DNA from: a virus
DNA: 38,509 bases
Virus record (IMG/VR): IMGVR_UViG_3300012352_000396
Span: 1-38,509 of that record
Reading direction: 5' to 3' (one strand)
In this document: one piece after another, positions 293 to 38,509 of the stretch
How the letters are laid out: the number at the start of each line of letters is the position of its first letter
Numbering within the stretch: position 1 is the first letter of the stretch
Position numbers and translations under genes: made by a program
The notes under the pieces: model-generated
What the model was told of the DNA's origin: nothing
Database searches by the model: none
Seen by the model: only the letters and a program-made list of their open reading frames with translations

Positions 293-322
293 TTGTTTAT
301 GTTAATTTATGGGTTATATTTG
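293..322 (+). promoter_or_regulatory. Candidate Bacteroidota-type promoter for the early operon (-33 TTG 293-295, -7 TATATTTG 315-322)
   Basis: TAnnTTTG box lies 24 nt upstream of the ATG at 346, with a TTG 19 nt upstream of the box. Motif match only. Confidence 0.4.
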
Positions 323-345
323 TATAAATTATAAACACTTACAAC

Positions 346-678
346 ATGAAAAAAGCATTTTTTACAATTGGTGATATTGATGAAAAGTTCGAAGGTATTA
401 CTTCCGGTCAGCGTTGGAATGGGTGGGAGTGTCCGTATTTTGACATTGAAACAGCGCAAAAAATCCTCAGCACTTTGCAGGATGTTGAGGAAGCTAAAAA
501 ATGGGGATTTAGTTATTATATTTTTACTCCTGACAATTTATGTATACAAGAATTTCACGAAGATGGGATAGAAACGTATACAGCTGTAAATTTTGAGGGT
601 AAAAATTACTTTCCTATCGGATATTGTAATTGGGTATGGGAGTTGGCAAGGGAAGAAGAAGAAGAAGAAGAAGGTTAA
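346..678 (+). CDS. Hypothetical early protein, 110 aa, acidic poly-Glu C-terminus
   Basis: ATG-initiated ORF. The stop TAA (676-678) lies inside stem I of the first hammerhead motif. No family recognised. Confidence 0.7.
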   Translation: MKKAFFTIGDIDEKFEGITSGQRWNGWECPYFDIETAQKILSTLQDVEEAKKWGFSYYIFTPDNLCIQEFHEDGIETYTAVNFEGKNYFPIGYCNWVWELAREEEEEEEG

Positions 679-728
679 CTGACGAGGCTTAAATTAGCCG
701 AAACGGGGCAAAAAACCCCGTATTAACC
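673..728 (+). ncRNA. Hammerhead ribozyme motif, type I (copy 1); predicted cleavage after A722
   Basis: GGTTAA / CTGACGA / GGCT-TAAATT-AGCC / GAA / ACGGGG-CAAAAAA-CCCCGT / A / TTAACC. All invariant core positions are present, with a 6-bp stem I, 4-bp stem II and 6-bp stem III. Confidence 0.8.
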
Positions 729-744
729 AAAAAACTTTTATTTT

Positions 745-840
745 ATGACTAAGAAAGACAAAAACTTGCTTTTAATTGTGCTGCTTATTGCAGCCTTTGC
801 GCTGACCATTTCCGGCAATTCATCACCTGAGTGGTGGTAA
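745..840 (+). CDS. Small hydrophobic protein, 31 aa (MTKKDKNLLLIVLLIAAFALTISGNSSPEWW)
   Basis: Hand-translated; below the ORF-track cutoff. ATG lies 22 nt after the predicted ribozyme cleavage site, the stop abuts the next ribozyme, and there is one TM-like segment. Confidence 0.5.
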   Translation: MTKKDKNLLLIVLLIAAFALTISGNSSPEWW

Positions 841-895
841 GGTTAACTGATGAGGCTTGAATAGCCGAAACGGGGCAAAAAACCCCGTATTAACC
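841..895 (+). ncRNA. Hammerhead ribozyme motif, type I (copy 2); predicted cleavage after A889
   Basis: GGTTAA / CTGATGA / GGCT-TGAAT-AGCC / GAA / ACGGGG-CAAAAAA-CCCCGT / A / TTAACC. Confidence 0.8.
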
Positions 896-911
896 AATAA
901 AAAATTAAATT

Positions 912-1205
912 ATGATTACTCAGGAAATGTTTTTGAATGCTGAATTAAGCCAAATATCACAAGTTTACTACGGCAAAGATAGATGTTGCCGCTGTGGCTG
1001 TAAAGGTGTTTATACAAGCACAAGTTTTAATAATTGCCCTTCAAGCTTTGCAGTTATAAATGATTCCCTTGTATTAAAACGATTAAAAAAGGCTAAAAAT
1101 ATCGTTTTAAAAGGCGGTGATGTTGATTACGGCACAAGTTATGTAAACATAGTTACAGGTAAAGATTTGGCACTATGCTTTTATTTTGTTGATGTAAAAG
1201 GTTAG
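912..1205 (+). CDS. Hypothetical early protein, 97 aa, Cys cluster (CCRCGCKG)
   Basis: ATG ORF. The stop TAG (1203-1205) lies inside stem I of hammerhead copy 3. Confidence 0.7.
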   Translation: MITQEMFLNAELSQISQVYYGKDRCCRCGCKGVYTSTSFNNCPSSFAVINDSLVLKRLKKAKNIVLKGGDVDYGTSYVNIVTGKDLALCFYFVDVKG

Positions 1206-1256
1206 CTGATGAGGCTTAAATAGCCGAAACGGGGGTCAAAAAACCCCGTCTTAACC
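1200..1256 (+). ncRNA. Hammerhead ribozyme motif, type I (copy 3); predicted cleavage after C1250 (GUC triplet)
   Basis: GGTTAG / CTGATGA / GGCT-TAAAT-AGCC / GAA / ACGGGG-GTCAAAAAA-CCCCGT / C / TTAACC. The innermost stem I pair becomes G-U. Confidence 0.8.
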
Positions 1257-1270
1257 AAAAAAATATTATT

Positions 1271-1522
1271 ATGAAATTGTATTGCTTAAAAGATGTAGAA
1301 GAAGCCGTAATTGTAAAAGGTGCAAAATTGCATAAGTTTTACGGGGCTATGAATGCTCATTGGGAACTTGAATACCCTGATGGATCTAAATATTCAAAAA
1401 TTAGGAAGGGAACTGGTCAAAAGTTTTTTTCTAAGTATAGACAAAAGCTAATTATATGCAATTCAGGAGTTTCTATATCTCTATTCACTACTAAATCATT
1501 CAGGTTAACTGACGAGGCTTAA
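1271..1522 (+). CDS. Hypothetical early protein, 83 aa
   Basis: ATG ORF. It reads through stem I and the CUGAYGA core of hammerhead copy 4, and its stop TAA lies in loop II. Confidence 0.65.
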   Translation: MKLYCLKDVEEAVIVKGAKLHKFYGAMNAHWELEYPDGSKYSKIRKGTGQKFFSKYRQKLIICNSGVSISLFTTKSFRLTDEA

Positions 1523-1558
1523 TTAGCCGAAAGCAGGACAAAAATCCTGCTATTAACC
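1503..1558 (+). ncRNA. Hammerhead ribozyme motif, type I (copy 4); predicted cleavage after A1552
   Basis: GGTTAA / CTGACGA / GGCT-TAATT-AGCC / GAA / AGCAGGA-CAAAAA-TCCTGCT / A / TTAACC. Stem III is fully rewritten with compensatory changes. Confidence 0.8.
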
Positions 1559-1574
1559 AAAAAACTATTATTAT

Positions 1575-1751
1575 ATGTTTAAGTCTTATCAAATCACTAT
1601 TGGCAACCATTCACGTATGATTATGGGTTTAGATTTAAAAGATGCTATTAAGACAGCTTCATGGATCAAAAAATGGAATAACTACAAGGGTAAAACAACT
1701 GTAAAGTACTTAACTCCAAATCAAGTTTTTGATATATTAAAAAGCCTTTAG
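1575..1751 (+). CDS. Hypothetical early protein, 58 aa (MFKSYQITIGNHSRMIMGLDLKDAIKTASWIKKWNNYKGKTTVKYLTPNQVFDILKSL)
   Basis: Hand-translated; below the track cutoff. ATG lies 22 nt after the predicted cleavage site of copy 4. Confidence 0.55.
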   Translation: MFKSYQITIGNHSRMIMGLDLKDAIKTASWIKKWNNYKGKTTVKYLTPNQVFDILKSL

Positions 1752-2305: not shown

Positions 2306-4813
2306 CTAAAAATCTATGTCCACTTTTTGGTTAGTGCCAAAACTGACAACTTTCTTGTTCCCAAACTGCTTGGATCGTGTACCTGAGTACGTGATTCCTA
2401 AAATAGTACACGATTCTTCCAAGGCTTTTGAGAACCTTTTTATAGAGTAATCTTTCTTGTCAAAATTGCTCTGAGACAAAAAATCGTTGTATAGTTGTTC
2501 AAGTTTTACCGGATAGTCTTTATGCTCCTCAGATGCCGTGAAAATGAAGTCCAAAAATTCTTCTCCATATTGAACACGAATCTGTTTGCGACCGAGTTTT
2601 TCACTATTTTCTACCGACTTAACTCCAAACTCCAAATAGGTTTGTACGCAAGTAAACATGAGGTTAAAAAAGCGATTCCACTCGTCCAAATCCCAATCAT
2701 CGAATAGCTTATGACCAAACTCGTCTTCTGGGGAGTGCTGAGGTGAAAAATATGGGGAGAATTCAAAAACTTTTTGTCTCCTCTTTGCGTGGTTGCCGGA
2801 ATTCGGGATGGTGTAGTTGGTGGTGAAGATGACTTTTGGGGAGTCTTTGAATGGGATGAAAAGTTCGTCTTTGTTCTTCTTCTCAACCGTGATTCCTTCC
2901 GTTATAATGCTATAAAAACCTTCAAAGTCAACGTTCCGTCTCGTATCCTCAATCGCAAGGATTTTGGTGTCCAAATCGACTCTTTGGAAGGCGAAATTCT
3001 TGTCAACCTTGAAGTTCTTACCATCAACCCGAACAAGGTTGTTCAAAAAACCCAATGCCTTCACGAAGATTCCTTTACCAGTTCCTCCACCGGAGGCTTC
3101 GTTCTCCGTCTCTTCTGCGAGAATAACGGAGAATGGTCTTGATGGGTCTTTGTATTTGTGCAGTAGGTATCCAACCAATGTCAAGCCGTAAATCGTACGA
3201 TCCATGTTCTTATCACTCACAAGGTGGATGAAACGATAGTATTCAATCATTTCAGCCTCTAATTTATCTTGGTCGATATAAATGTGGTGGTCGATGACTT
3301 GAGTCTTCCAAACGTACTTATTGAGGTCGCCATATGTTCTAAGGCGAATATAGTCCTTTTTAACCTCTACAACGCCATTTTTGAATGGGAAGTAAGCGAG
3401 GTCGCTTTTGTCTTCCAAGAAGTCGATATTTGCCCTATCGAAGAACTCAAAGAAGGCATCTGAGAATAGGGTGGTTGCACCTTTGTAAATTAATTCAAGA
3501 AGGTCTTGAGGTGTCACGCCACCATCAAATGAGTCAGGTAGCTTATCAACGTACTCTTTTATGAAGCGTTTTATCTGCTCCGTTGAACTCTCCTCTACGA
3601 ATCCATCTTGAATCCTAACGAGTCTATAAATGGTGGAATTCGGATCATAAAAATATAGCCTAAAGCCTCCGATTTGGGTAAGGAAGACCTGCAACTTATA
3701 ACGATTGATAGTAGGTAGACCTTTCTTATCAATGTCCCAAAATGTACAGATTTCCTTACCCCATCTTTGCTCCAGTTCTCCTACGACCTCAGTAGCATCG
3801 GATATGCTCTTTTTTTGTGTCTGCACAAGGTATTGGACTAAGTCCTCGCTTGATGCTCCATTTTGCTTCTTGGAGAAGAGTTGGCGTTCCAATTTCTCTC
3901 CGAAGGAAGTTTTTTTTTCCCCATAACCAATGTCAAGCAATGCCCTTGCCGCTGCTTTGAAGTCCCCATTATGCTCAAGGATAGCATACACGGCAGCAGG
4001 TTTGTATCCTTTCTGTACCATGAATGGAGTGTTGACTGAGAACACGCTAAAAAGCCTCATGGACTTATTGAATGATCCACTATGGTCAGCCTTGCTTCCA
4101 GGTCTAAGGTAATAAGTTCGTTCACTATTCTCCTTAACTATAGTCCAACCTTGGCGCAGGAGGATGTCGCTTATGTCGCCACGATTATTGAAGTCATCAA
4201 ATGGTGATACCCCGTAATCTTTTGACGTTGGGCGTTGGAACGCTTCCACAACTTGCTCCTCAACTATCTCATTAAATGAGCGCATAATCTCAAATAAGGT
4301 CTCACGCTCGTCTATTGTGATGATGTTGATACCTTTTTGAATGACTTTGTAGCCATCACTTGGAGGTGCGACAACATAACCACCCTCACCACGGGTCTCA
4401 ATGATGCAATATGATTTAATGTGTGGCGTAGCTTGAGCCTCCTCCTTTGTTGGAGGTCGTTGAGCGAGTTTAAGGTTTTGCTCAATCACTTCGCACTTGT
4501 AGTAAAGGTGTTTGCCATTACTCTTTGTGGAAACGATATGGAGTTTGTCGTACAGTTCTTGAGGGATTTTATTTTTGATAGCATCCCAAAGGTCAAATGT
4601 CTCGTATTTGGTGTCTATGTCAATTACTTCCAAGCCACCGGATATAGATCCACAAATGATGGCAATGCCTTTGGCTCGTTCGTCTTTCATTTGAAGAGAC
4701 AATTCCTCTTTTGTAATCTTCTCGCTCTGGTATTTCTTCCAAGGGAAGATGGCTTGTTTTTTGTCGTTAACTGCGATGGCATTAACGCCATAGTCTAAGT
4801 ACTTTAAATGCAT
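2306..4813 (-). CDS. Bifunctional primase-polymerase (prim-pol N-terminus) fused to a D5/P4-type SF3 helicase
   Basis: 835 aa. N-terminus: GIAIICG..LEVIDID, HLYY, ETRGEGGYVVAPPS (prim-pol signature). C-terminus: Walker A SGGGTGKG, then a D5_N/P4-primase-like region. Confidence 0.85.
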   Translation of the reverse strand: MHLKYLDYGVNAIAVNDKKQAIFPWKKYQSEKITKEELSLQMKDERAKGIAIICGSISGGLEVIDIDTKYETFDLWDAIKNKIPQELYDKLHIVSTKSNGKHLYYKCEVIEQNLKLAQRPPTKEEAQATPHIKSYCIIETRGEGGYVVAPPSDGYKVIQKGINIITIDERETLFEIMRSFNEIVEEQVVEAFQRPTSKDYGVSPFDDFNNRGDISDILLRQGWTIVKENSERTYYLRPGSKADHSGSFNKSMRLFSVFSVNTPFMVQKGYKPAAVYAILEHNGDFKAAARALLDIGYGEKKTSFGEKLERQLFSKKQNGASSEDLVQYLVQTQKKSISDATEVVGELEQRWGKEICTFWDIDKKGLPTINRYKLQVFLTQIGGFRLYFYDPNSTIYRLVRIQDGFVEESSTEQIKRFIKEYVDKLPDSFDGGVTPQDLLELIYKGATTLFSDAFFEFFDRANIDFLEDKSDLAYFPFKNGVVEVKKDYIRLRTYGDLNKYVWKTQVIDHHIYIDQDKLEAEMIEYYRFIHLVSDKNMDRTIYGLTLVGYLLHKYKDPSRPFSVILAEETENEASGGGTGKGIFVKALGFLNNLVRVDGKNFKVDKNFAFQRVDLDTKILAIEDTRRNVDFEGFYSIITEGITVEKKNKDELFIPFKDSPKVIFTTNYTIPNSGNHAKRRQKVFEFSPYFSPQHSPEDEFGHKLFDDWDLDEWNRFFNLMFTCVQTYLEFGVKSVENSEKLGRKQIRVQYGEEFLDFIFTASEEHKDYPVKLEQLYNDFLSQSNFDKKDYSIKRFSKALEESCTILGITYSGTRSKQFGNKKVVSFGTNQKVDIDF

Positions 4814-9609: not shown

Positions 9610-9771
9610 TTAAAGTTGATTATGTTCTTTTAAAGCTGCCTCTAATAATAACTGCACTTTACCTCCAATCTCGTCAACAAAAAATGCTCCAGTCGTGTAT
9701 GACTTCCCTTTGTAAACGAGAGTTACTAATGTGACTCCGGTATCAAGGTGTTTGATTTTTATATTAATCAT
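9610..9771 (-). CDS. Hypothetical small protein, 53 aa (MINIKIKHLDTG...)
   Basis: Internal ATG of the 98-aa track ORF. It overlaps the upstream stop by 8 nt (ATGATTAA), which removes an implausible 143-nt gene overlap. Confidence 0.5.
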   Translation of the reverse strand: MINIKIKHLDTGVTLVTLVYKGKSYTTGAFFVDEIGGKVQLLLEAALKEHNQL

Positions 9772-9997
9772 GTGTTTTGATTTTAGCATCCCCAGTACCC
9801 TTGCATGATCCGCAACCATTGCCACTACAATGTTCGCACATTGGTGTGTCATGCTCGTACTCGTAATCCCATTCCTCAACATTAACATTGTCCTGAAGTA
9901 CGTCAAGAATCAATTCTAATGCCTCTTTTGATTTCCTATCTATTTGGCGTTCCTTACCGAATAGACTAACATAGTAAATAGCATCTGATAGTGTCAT
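9764..9997 (-). CDS. Small protein with DnaJ-type zinc finger (2 x CxxCxGxG)
   Basis: CEHCSGNG-CGSCKGTG near the C-terminus. Confidence 0.6.
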   Translation of the reverse strand: MTLSDAIYYVSLFGKERQIDRKSKEALELILDVLQDNVNVEEWDYEYEHDTPMCEHCSGNGCGSCKGTGDAKIKTHD

Positions 9998-13467: not shown

Positions 13468-13508
13468 ATTAAAAATATAAAAAACCCCAATTGTAGAAAC
13501 AATCGGGG
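13468..13508 (-). terminator. Intrinsic terminator at the end of the structural/lysis operon
   Basis: On the minus strand: CCCCGATTG-TTTCTA-CAATTGGGG (one mismatch), followed by TTTTTTATATTTTT. Confidence 0.7.
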
Positions 13509-38202: not shown

Positions 38203-38224
38203 GCCCATATGTAAGCCGGTTAAG

Positions 38225-38509
38225 GTCAGTTAATGGACGTTTAAACGCTATAGGTCAGTTAATGGACGTTTAAACGCTATAGGTCAGTTAATGGACGTTT
38301 AAACGCTATAGGTCAGTTAATGGACGTTTAAACGCTATAGGTCAGTTAATGGACGTTTAAACGCTATAGGTCAGTTAATGGACGTTTAAACGCTATAGGT
38401 CAGTTAATGGACGTTTAAACGCTATAGGTCAGTTAATGGACGTTTAAACGCTATAGGTCAGTTAATGGACGTTTAAACGCTATAGGTCAGTTAATGGACG
38501 TTTAAACGC
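38225..38509. repeat. 29-bp perfect tandem repeat, 9.8 copies, each with the 10-bp palindrome CGTTTAAACG
   Basis: 285 nt = 9 x 29 + 24, with no spacers and no variation between units. It continues into nt 1-54 across the window junction. Confidence 0.95.

Follow-up and report, generated by a model that had tools for sequence, protein, structure and literature searches.

The left end of a viral genome, IMG/VR record IMGVR_UViG_3300012352_000396 (38,509 nt; this whole stretch is called the window in the following), carries four elements of about 56 nt, which follow the first four small open reading frames (ORFs) of a short plus-strand operon and which a first-pass annotation had read as type I hammerhead ribozymes. 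The window holds a tailed-phage genome, with genes for a portal protein, an HK97-type capsid protein, a prim-pol/DUF5906 primase, and a C5 methyltransferase. Nearly all of its long genes lie on the minus strand, the exception at the left end being the five-ORF operon compiled in Table 1 (346-1751). Each of the four intercistronic spacers measures 66-71 nt and is made up of one copy of the element and a short A-rich leader. The positions given to the elements in the first-pass annotation are exact in the sequence, and the full type I consensus parse proved correct in 4/4 copies, with a descriptor scan, the covariance model R1, and covariation all in agreement. Judged from the sequence, all four are true type I hammerhead motifs, one per intercistronic spacer, and very probably these four ribozymes, members of a subclass abundant in phages, self-cleave and process the five-gene operon.

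Table 1. Features of the plus-strand operon at the left end of the window (aa, amino acids).
Feature	Position	Strand	Description
Candidate Bacteroidota-type promoter	293-322	+	TTG 293-295, 19-nt spacer, TAtaTTTG 315-322; weak evidence
ORF1	346-678	+	110 aa, poly-Glu C-terminus, first cistron; PHROG 9945 match (unknown function)
Hammerhead copy 1	673-728	+	Predicted cleavage after A722; ORF1 TAA 676-678 in stem I 5' strand
ORF2	745-840	+	31 aa, hydrophobic; ATG 22 nt past cleavage site 1
Hammerhead copy 2	841-895	+	Predicted cleavage after A889; ORF2 TAA 838-840 ends on conserved A(-1)
ORF3	912-1205	+	97 aa, Cys-rich; ATG 22 nt past cleavage site 2
Hammerhead copy 3	1200-1256	+	GUC triplet, predicted cleavage after C1250; ORF3 TAG 1203-1205 in stem I
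ORF4	1271-1522	+	83 aa; ATG 20 nt past cleavage site 3
Hammerhead copy 4	1503-1558	+	Predicted cleavage after A1552; ORF4 stop is the loop II TAA 1520-1522
ORF5	1575-1751	+	58 aa, last cistron; ATG 22 nt past cleavage site 4
Palindromic hairpin CTACCATCCTGGTAG, then T/A-rich sequence	1777-1791	called on -; stem self-complementary	Candidate end of the operon transcript

The elements follow the type I order, with the 5' strand of stem I, CUGANGA, the stem II hairpin, GAA, the stem III hairpin, residue H17, and the 3' strand of stem I; a type III hammerhead parse was not found at the four sites. Stem I is formed by GGTTAA and TTAACC, with GGTTAG in copy 3, such that a G-U pair lies beside the core; the core CTGAYGA, a stem II of GGCT and AGCC capped by a loop of 5-6 nt, and the subsequent GAA are common to all four copies. 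Stem III starts on A and ends on T (ACGGGG..CCCCGT in copies 1, 2, and 3, but AGCAGGA..TCCTGCT in copy 4), and H17 is A, A, C, and A across copies 1-4. The junction pairs G10.1-C11.1, A15.1-U16.1, and A/G2.1-U1.1 are present in 4/4 copies, and copy 1 is flanked by the conserved adenines A672 and A729-A730. In copy 4, the coding sequence of ORF4 passes through stem I and the core before it reaches its stop codon in loop II. Several details of the first-pass annotation are borne out at this level: the stem III of copy 4 is rewritten with full compensation, copy 3 has both the innermost G-U pair in stem I and the GUC triplet, and the predicted scissile bonds after 722, 889, 1250, and 1552 follow from the parse. 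Its statement that the invariant core stays fixed while other positions vary can be put in numbers: among the 13 positions invariant in the consensus (C3, U4, G5, A6, G8, A9, G12, A13, A14, G10.1, C11.1, A15.1, and U16.1) none differs between the four copies, versus 19 of the 46 others (Fisher p = 0.003).

The hammerhead three-way junction is both the minimum free energy (MFE) and the centroid structure computed for each isolated element, with folding z values against shuffled sequences of -3.55, -3.44, -3.09, and -4.66 for copies 1 to 4. An RNA of the reverse strand was considered and rejected; its thermodynamic fold is equally good, but it lacks the core, and its G-U pairs would become A-C mismatches. 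The G-U pair in stem I of copy 3, for instance, is feasible on the plus strand only, the opposite strand having an A-C mismatch at this place. The window was scanned on both strands with a descriptor made up of CUGANGA, hairpins for stems II and III with GAA between them, a residue other than G at H17, and a stem I of 4 bp or more; the four sites were its only matches, and 200 shuffled windows gave a mean of 0.02 matches. A repeat search grouped the copies into one direct-repeat family with four members of 82 nt, downstream leader included, and 61-79% identity, and for this reason they are not to be counted as four independent events.

The Rfam check put forward in the first-pass annotation formally went against it, since the whole window yielded no matches at gathering thresholds (14.6-24.4 bits against cut-offs of 34-56). 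At relaxed thresholds, the best Rfam match was to RAGATH-1-hammerhead (RF03152), with 22-24 bits and at best 24.4 against a gathering cut-off of 56.3, followed by Hammerhead_3 (RF00008; 17.8 bits, cut-off 48.5) and Hammerhead_1 (RF00163; 14.6 bits, cut-off 34). Ten viral loci with more than 25 textbook-perfect hammerheads of the same subclass likewise gave zero Rfam gathering matches, and because Rfam also misses these loci full of perfect relatives, its miss in the window reflects a gap in model coverage and not the absence of the motif. Covariance model R1, on the other hand, was trained on 46 hammerheads from other viral contigs, none of them from the window. Run with filters off, it recovered copy 1 with 54.5 bits (E 1.7e-11), copy 2 with 62.5 bits (E 1.6e-13), copy 3 with 62.7 bits (E 1.4e-13), and copy 4 with 54.8 bits (E 1.4e-11), while the next best match in the 77 kb searched scored 10.3 bits.

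Both partners have changed in 14 of the 16 base pairs of the 46-sequence training alignment, and all three stems covary, here as in the syntenic relatives described below; the training sequences had been pre-selected for pairing, and their figure of 100% paired is partly so by construction. The bias is small, as can be seen from a pattern scan of viral contigs confined to the core and stem II (CTGAYGAGGCT..AGCCGAAA), which at least 120 contigs match: in 116 of the 120 loci listed, the surroundings complete a full type I hammerhead. In 11 family members one stem I pair is G-U, for which the opposite strand would have mismatched A and C. The combination of a fixed core, covarying helices, and G-U pairs marks the conservation as RNA-type and strand-specific.

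A second line of covariation came from relatives of the phage, which were found via the primase protein (38 loci, 42-86% identity). In 9 of the 38 loci, R1 matched once each and in the same place, namely in the convergent small-gene operon just past the 3' end of the primase gene. Across the four window copies and seven distinct sequences from these syntenic relatives, 100% of the cells are paired and compensatory changes occur at 10 of 16 pairs, whereas pairing falls to about 25-47% if the partners are slid by 1-3 columns. One relative, L133, encodes a homologue of ORF1 (45% identity) with a hammerhead directly after it, at the same junction as copy 1, so that an ortholog exists for at least this copy. 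The orthologous hammerhead (9751-9822, minus strand; 55.6 bits) reads CCGAUGA instead of CUGAUGA, with U4 replaced by C and no other departure from the motif, and may be either a decaying copy or a natural variant of the core. No hammerhead adjoins the more remote homologues of ORF1 found on viral contigs (28-33% identity), from which it follows that the ribozyme is not tied to the ORF1 gene family. The hammerhead-flanked genes differ between relatives. Since the primase relatives carry one copy each and the window copies form an 82-nt repeat family, the four copies seem to have arisen by local multiplication of an 82-nt cassette.

The variable gene content would also fit a role at the level of DNA, in which the elements serve as sites for a phage DNA-binding protein or as recombination boundaries of mobile gene cassettes, with the likeness to hammerheads being incidental. 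In line with this, the 12-mer AAAAAACCCCGT, which covers the stem III loop and 3' strand in copies 1-3, recurs in phased 11-12-nt repeats at 205-280, and the related motif AAAAAACYCC is 30-fold over-represented and located almost wholly within 86-2090. Copy 4, however, does without the 12-mer and yet has a compensated stem III, the conservation is of the RNA type and strand-specific as outlined above, and a full hammerhead parse is expected by chance only 0.02 times per window. A function mainly at the DNA level is thus considered highly improbable. As to the repeats themselves, AAAAAACYCC occurs 14 times versus 0.43 expected, with 13 of the 14 in the first 2.1 kb and the other at 13479; all are on the plus strand except the one at 86-95, and six belong to a phased 11-12-nt run (AAAAAACCCCGT / AAAAAACTCCCGT) just upstream of the candidate promoter. 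The recurrence of AAAAAACCCCGT may go back to DNA bending, to the binding of a protein, or to common ancestry.

The subclass to which the window copies belong was characterized on 138 non-redundant viral hammerheads. Many of the contigs listed in the core and stem II scan carry extra copies with other stem II sequences, and arrays of 4-5 copies are common (L058, L117, L008). Stem I is exactly 6 bp long in 133/138 members and is bracketed by conserved adenines, with A(-1) in 134/138, A(+1) in 134/138, and A(+2) in 108/138, while the 5-nt loop II follows the pattern U (117/117)-N-A (114/117)-N-U/G. These positions lay outside the search pattern, and stop-codon usage accounts for a minority of the A(-1) cases. 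The A(-1), the AA at (+1,+2), and the U-N-A-N-U pattern of loop II are present in 4/4 window copies. With 6 bp in stem I opposite a 4-bp stem II that carries a small loop, the geometry is that of classical extended hammerheads, and on this ground the A / 6-bp / AA bracket together with the loop II pattern is regarded as a candidate tertiary contact between stem I and loop II. The reservation expressed in the first-pass annotation, that stem I has only 6 bp and that no obvious tertiary contact is visible, therefore holds in its first part, whereas for the second a candidate exists (the flanking A's and the U.A.U of loop II in 4/4 copies). A mutual-information scan of loop II against the flanks for a Watson-Crick pseudoknot gave no convincing signal; without Watson-Crick covariation between the two, a pseudoknot is unlikely, and a contact would have to be of a non-canonical kind, not provable from sequences by covariation. 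The bracket and loop pattern may represent a new tertiary-contact class of type I hammerheads outside the Rfam models. The stem II sequences of the subclass were not found in the supplementary text of Perreault et al. (2011), where the alignments are probably not included as text, and an earlier description of the signature could not be confirmed.

With regard to its distribution, the strict subclass pattern gave 10 matches in 185,579 species genomes (L159-L168), compared with at least 120 viral contigs for the looser pattern, and the subclass looks mainly phage-borne and appears to cross host phyla. The ten genome matches fall into Bacteroidota (Mucilaginibacter twice, Puia), Burkholderiales/Polaromonas, Rickettsiales, Bdellovibrionales, and Phycisphaerales. 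Core and stem II matches were also seen in the early regions of the cultured pelagiphages HTVC019P, HTVC131P, HTVC022P, HTVC304P, Jormungand, and Ran. HTVC019P (L169 = KC465901.1, about 2946-3011), the only pelagiphage checked with R1, has a full type I hammerhead (48.4 bits, E 8e-11). The GenBank records show no feature at the pelagiphage matches, or a 'hypothetical protein' coding sequence (Jormungand, Ran), and no ribozyme is annotated there.

Another feature of the subclass is the tight coupling of the ribozyme to the ends of the neighboring genes. A same-strand ORF ends at the ribozyme in 132/138 family members, and the last base of its stop codon falls at one of a few offsets from the first base of stem I, namely 0/+1 (making use of the conserved A and G), +6 (UAA/UAG in stem I), +10 (24 cases, in which the CUGA of the core supplies the UGA), or +20 (loop II UAA). 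From stem I to the following start codon there are typically 12-23 nt. For window copies 1-4, the stop offsets are 6, 0, 6, and 20, and the gaps between stem I and ATG are 16, 16, 14, and 16 nt. The fixed offsets amount to a very compact cassette of stop codon, ribozyme, leader, and start codon, and the predicted 3' products open with leaders of 20-22 nt, UUAACCAA(A/U)AAA...AUG.

From these features a sequence of events can be proposed, for which we infer transcription of the operon as one unit, cleavage in vivo, and a benefit to mRNA stability and translation. The operon would be transcribed as a single RNA, and each 66-71-nt spacer would fold co-transcriptionally into the computed three-way junction. 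In the hammerhead reaction, the 2'-OH of H17 attacks its own 3' phosphate, with G12 acting as general base and the 2'-OH of G8 as general acid. Cleavage is predicted to leave a 2',3'-cyclic phosphate on 722, 889, 1250, and 1552 and a 5'-OH on 723, 890, 1251, and 1553, whereupon the A/U-rich 6-bp stem I would melt. The upstream cistrons would keep the stable stem II/III hairpins at their 3' ends, and the downstream cistrons would begin with a 5'-OH and a uniform, unstructured, A-rich leader (UUAACCAAAAAAC...AUG) of the kind that suits initiation independent of a Shine-Dalgarno (SD) sequence, as seen throughout the genome in the window. The net effect would be the conversion of a polycistronic message into single-gene mRNAs without the help of a host nuclease, such that translation and decay of each mRNA would be insulated from its neighbors.

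Several points weigh against this proposal, in addition to the missing Rfam matches. The evidence for a single transcript is a weak promoter match; the short stem I is rich in A/U, and with 20-40 nt of natural flank, the MFE structure drops stem I of copies 1, 3, and 4 in some contexts; and a ribosome that terminates at the upstream stop codon, which is part of the ribozyme, would transiently disrupt the ribozyme fold. The selective benefit, be it stability or insulation, is inferred, and the benefit of such hammerheads is regarded as unresolved in the literature (PMC6765202). Furthermore, three of the four copies have a GUA triplet, in contrast to GUC in 87% of the family.

A different possibility is that the elements are derived from hammerheads but catalytically dead or very slow, and are kept as intercistronic hairpins (3'-end stabilizers, attenuators, or terminators) or as repeats resembling repetitive extragenic palindromic (REP) sequences, with the transcripts remaining uncut. 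The weak stem I that is out-competed by flanking sequence in MFE predictions, the GUA in three copies, and the Rfam scores below threshold would all be compatible with such a relic, and the U4-to-C change at the orthologous site in L133 indicates that decay of the core is possible in this clade. GUA, however, is a permitted and active triplet under the NUH rule, and it is difficult to reconcile a relic with 13/13 invariant positions intact in four copies in which 41% of the others vary. A plain hairpin repeat would have no reason to conserve CUGANGA and GAA, and more than 130 family members retain the core with freely covarying stems. Absent or very slow catalysis is hence quite unlikely. Intrinsic terminators were rejected as well, as no plus-strand terminator-like site coincides with the four elements and no U-run is present, stem III being followed by H17 and UUAACCAAAA; the missing U-runs and the core-specific conservation speak against both terminators and REP-like repeats.

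Cleavage could, alternatively, be a first step only. The two ends of each one-gene fragment (723-889, 890-1250, and 1251-1552) might come together as a complete hammerhead, after which the reverse hammerhead reaction or host RtcB could close the fragment into a circular mRNA; fragments might also be joined in a new order, and splicing or shuffling at the RNA level would become possible. Such a scheme was explicitly raised by Perreault et al. in 2011 (PMC3088659), and it would profit from the fact that the stem I strands GGUUA(A/G)/UUAACC are cross-compatible among all window copies. Among neighboring array hammerheads on other contigs (L058, L117, L008, L046, L049, and others), 20/39 are fully cross-compatible in stem I, versus 10.5% of random pairs. 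Stems II and III diverge at the same time, with an identical stem III in only 4 of them. About half of the array pairs are, on the other hand, not cross-compatible, and the recent duplication of an 82-nt cassette together with the constraints that stop codon and leader impose in each phage is a simpler source of a shared stem I. Spliced or circular products were sought by Perreault et al., and none were seen (PMC3088659). Re-ligation of the window fragments is accordingly judged improbable, and it appears similarly doubtful that phage hammerhead arrays in general are devices for circularization or splicing at the RNA level, giving exonuclease-resistant circular mRNAs, rather than simple cutters.

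Self-cleavage into single-gene mRNAs, the preferred reading, has a functional analogy in phage T7, whose early polycistronic mRNA is reportedly cut at RNase III sites between the cistrons (Dunn and Studier), leaving 3' ends with a protective hairpin. In both cases structured elements between cistrons would be cut to give single-gene mRNAs; T7 requires a host protein enzyme and recognition of double-stranded RNA, whereas the window RNA is predicted to cut itself and to leave 5'-OH and 2',3'-cyclic phosphate ends. The closest precedent was provided by Perreault et al. (2011), who reported thousands of hammerheads, hundreds of them in bacteria, and described clustered hammerheads that flank single prophage genes, by which long phage transcripts may become single-gene mRNAs (PMC3088659). 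Cleavage in vitro was recorded for the arrays of Clostridium scindens, Azorhizobium caulinodans, and Agrobacterium tumefaciens, and for the last of these in E. coli as well (PMC3088659). The window array shares with them the canonical core, the presence of several ribozymes within 1-2 kb, and the co-directional small genes of non-conserved identity, and is a further example of an arrangement known in phages since 2011. The arrays tested at that time belong to prophages of other phyla, whereas the window copies reside in an uncultured tailed phage that apparently infects Bacteroidota; they are further set apart by the fixed 6-bp stem I in its A/AA bracket and by the U-N-A-N-U loop II.

Among the families in Rfam, RAGATH-1 (RF03152) resembles the window copies in its type I topology, the CUGAUGA..CGAAAC..GUC core, the A-rich sequence 5' of a short stem I, and the long stem III. 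An additional 5' hairpin and a stem II with a single annotated pair characterize its consensus, in contrast to the window copies, where stem II has 4 bp and no 5' hairpin is conserved. In the Rfam alignments of the window copies, the RAGATH-1 5' hairpin was matched weakly or by deletion, and the copies are not to be classed as a variant of this family. Hammerhead_1 (RF00163), the animal satellite-type model, has the same open-stem-I permutation and the same core; it fails on the phage subclass, with 0 matches in the 10 loci rich in such ribozymes. The HTVC019P hammerhead belongs to the same subclass, with the A-6bp-A bracket, the stem II GGCUUUAAUAGCC, and A17, and is located in an intergenic part of the early region upstream of MarR, integrase, and RNA polymerase genes; it differs in being a single copy in a T7-like podovirus with an alphaproteobacterial host.

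The roles of hammerheads in bacteria and phages are still largely elusive according to Weinberg et al. (2019) (PMC6765202). In this context the locus is unusually clean, with four ribozymes within 900 nt, each fused to the upstream stop codon and trailed by a leader of uniform length (20-22 nt), in a genome almost devoid of SD motifs, and for this reason the idea of a self-processing operon with insulated cistrons is directly testable here. The established picture of clustered phage hammerheads is left unchanged, and a specialist will not be surprised to find hammerheads between phage genes. The value of the locus lies in its use for a clean test, in the candidate signature of a tertiary contact, and in the systematic miss by Rfam of an abundant subclass: standard Rfam/Infernal annotation overlooks the whole group, found in at least 120 viral contigs and in cultured pelagiphages, and a dedicated model would recover many ribozymes, with cultured phages such as HTVC019P offering themselves for experimental work.

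As regards the operon and its surroundings, a search of the five small ORFs against Pfam and PHROGs matched ORF1 alone and provided no functional clue. A (GAA)x7.3 run at 652-673 encodes the poly-glutamate tail EEEEEEEG of ORF1 and runs directly into stem I of copy 1. The R1 search of the window found no hammerhead 3' of ORF5. The candidate promoter is of the -33/-7 style and lies 24 nt 5' of the ORF1 ATG; its TANNTTTG box is the sole plus-strand occurrence within 1-2400, and as a promoter marker TANNTTTG scarcely exceeds chance over the genome (59 found versus 46 expected), such that it lends weak support only. SD-like motifs precede 2/37 genes (background 15%), and the leaders are 74% A+T. 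A nucleotide search of the first 8 kb against GenBank phages gave a sole match, to the methyltransferase of Bacteroides phages, and no close relative. The scarcity of SD motifs, the A/T-rich leaders, the promoter match, and the similarity to the Bacteroides-phage methyltransferase make a Bacteroidota host likely.

At the right end of the window, a 29-nt unit, GTCAGTTAATGGACGTTTAAACGCTATAG, is repeated perfectly in tandem (38223-38509, 9.9 copies), and two further copies of it occupy 1-54. As the array at the end continues into the first 54 bases, the window probably represents a whole phage genome, circular or terminally redundant, that was opened within an array of at least 12 copies; the array may be an origin, a pac site, or an iteron cluster. 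Further short direct repeats are found in non-coding DNA around the operon, at 2239-2280, 2038-2066, and 91-161, namely AATCACGTACC (x3.2) adjoining the end of the prim-pol gene, AATCTTCCC (x3.2), and an exact 32-nt repeat (91-122 / 130-161). The gap between the convergent operons (1751-2306) resembles a replication origin or a regulatory region.

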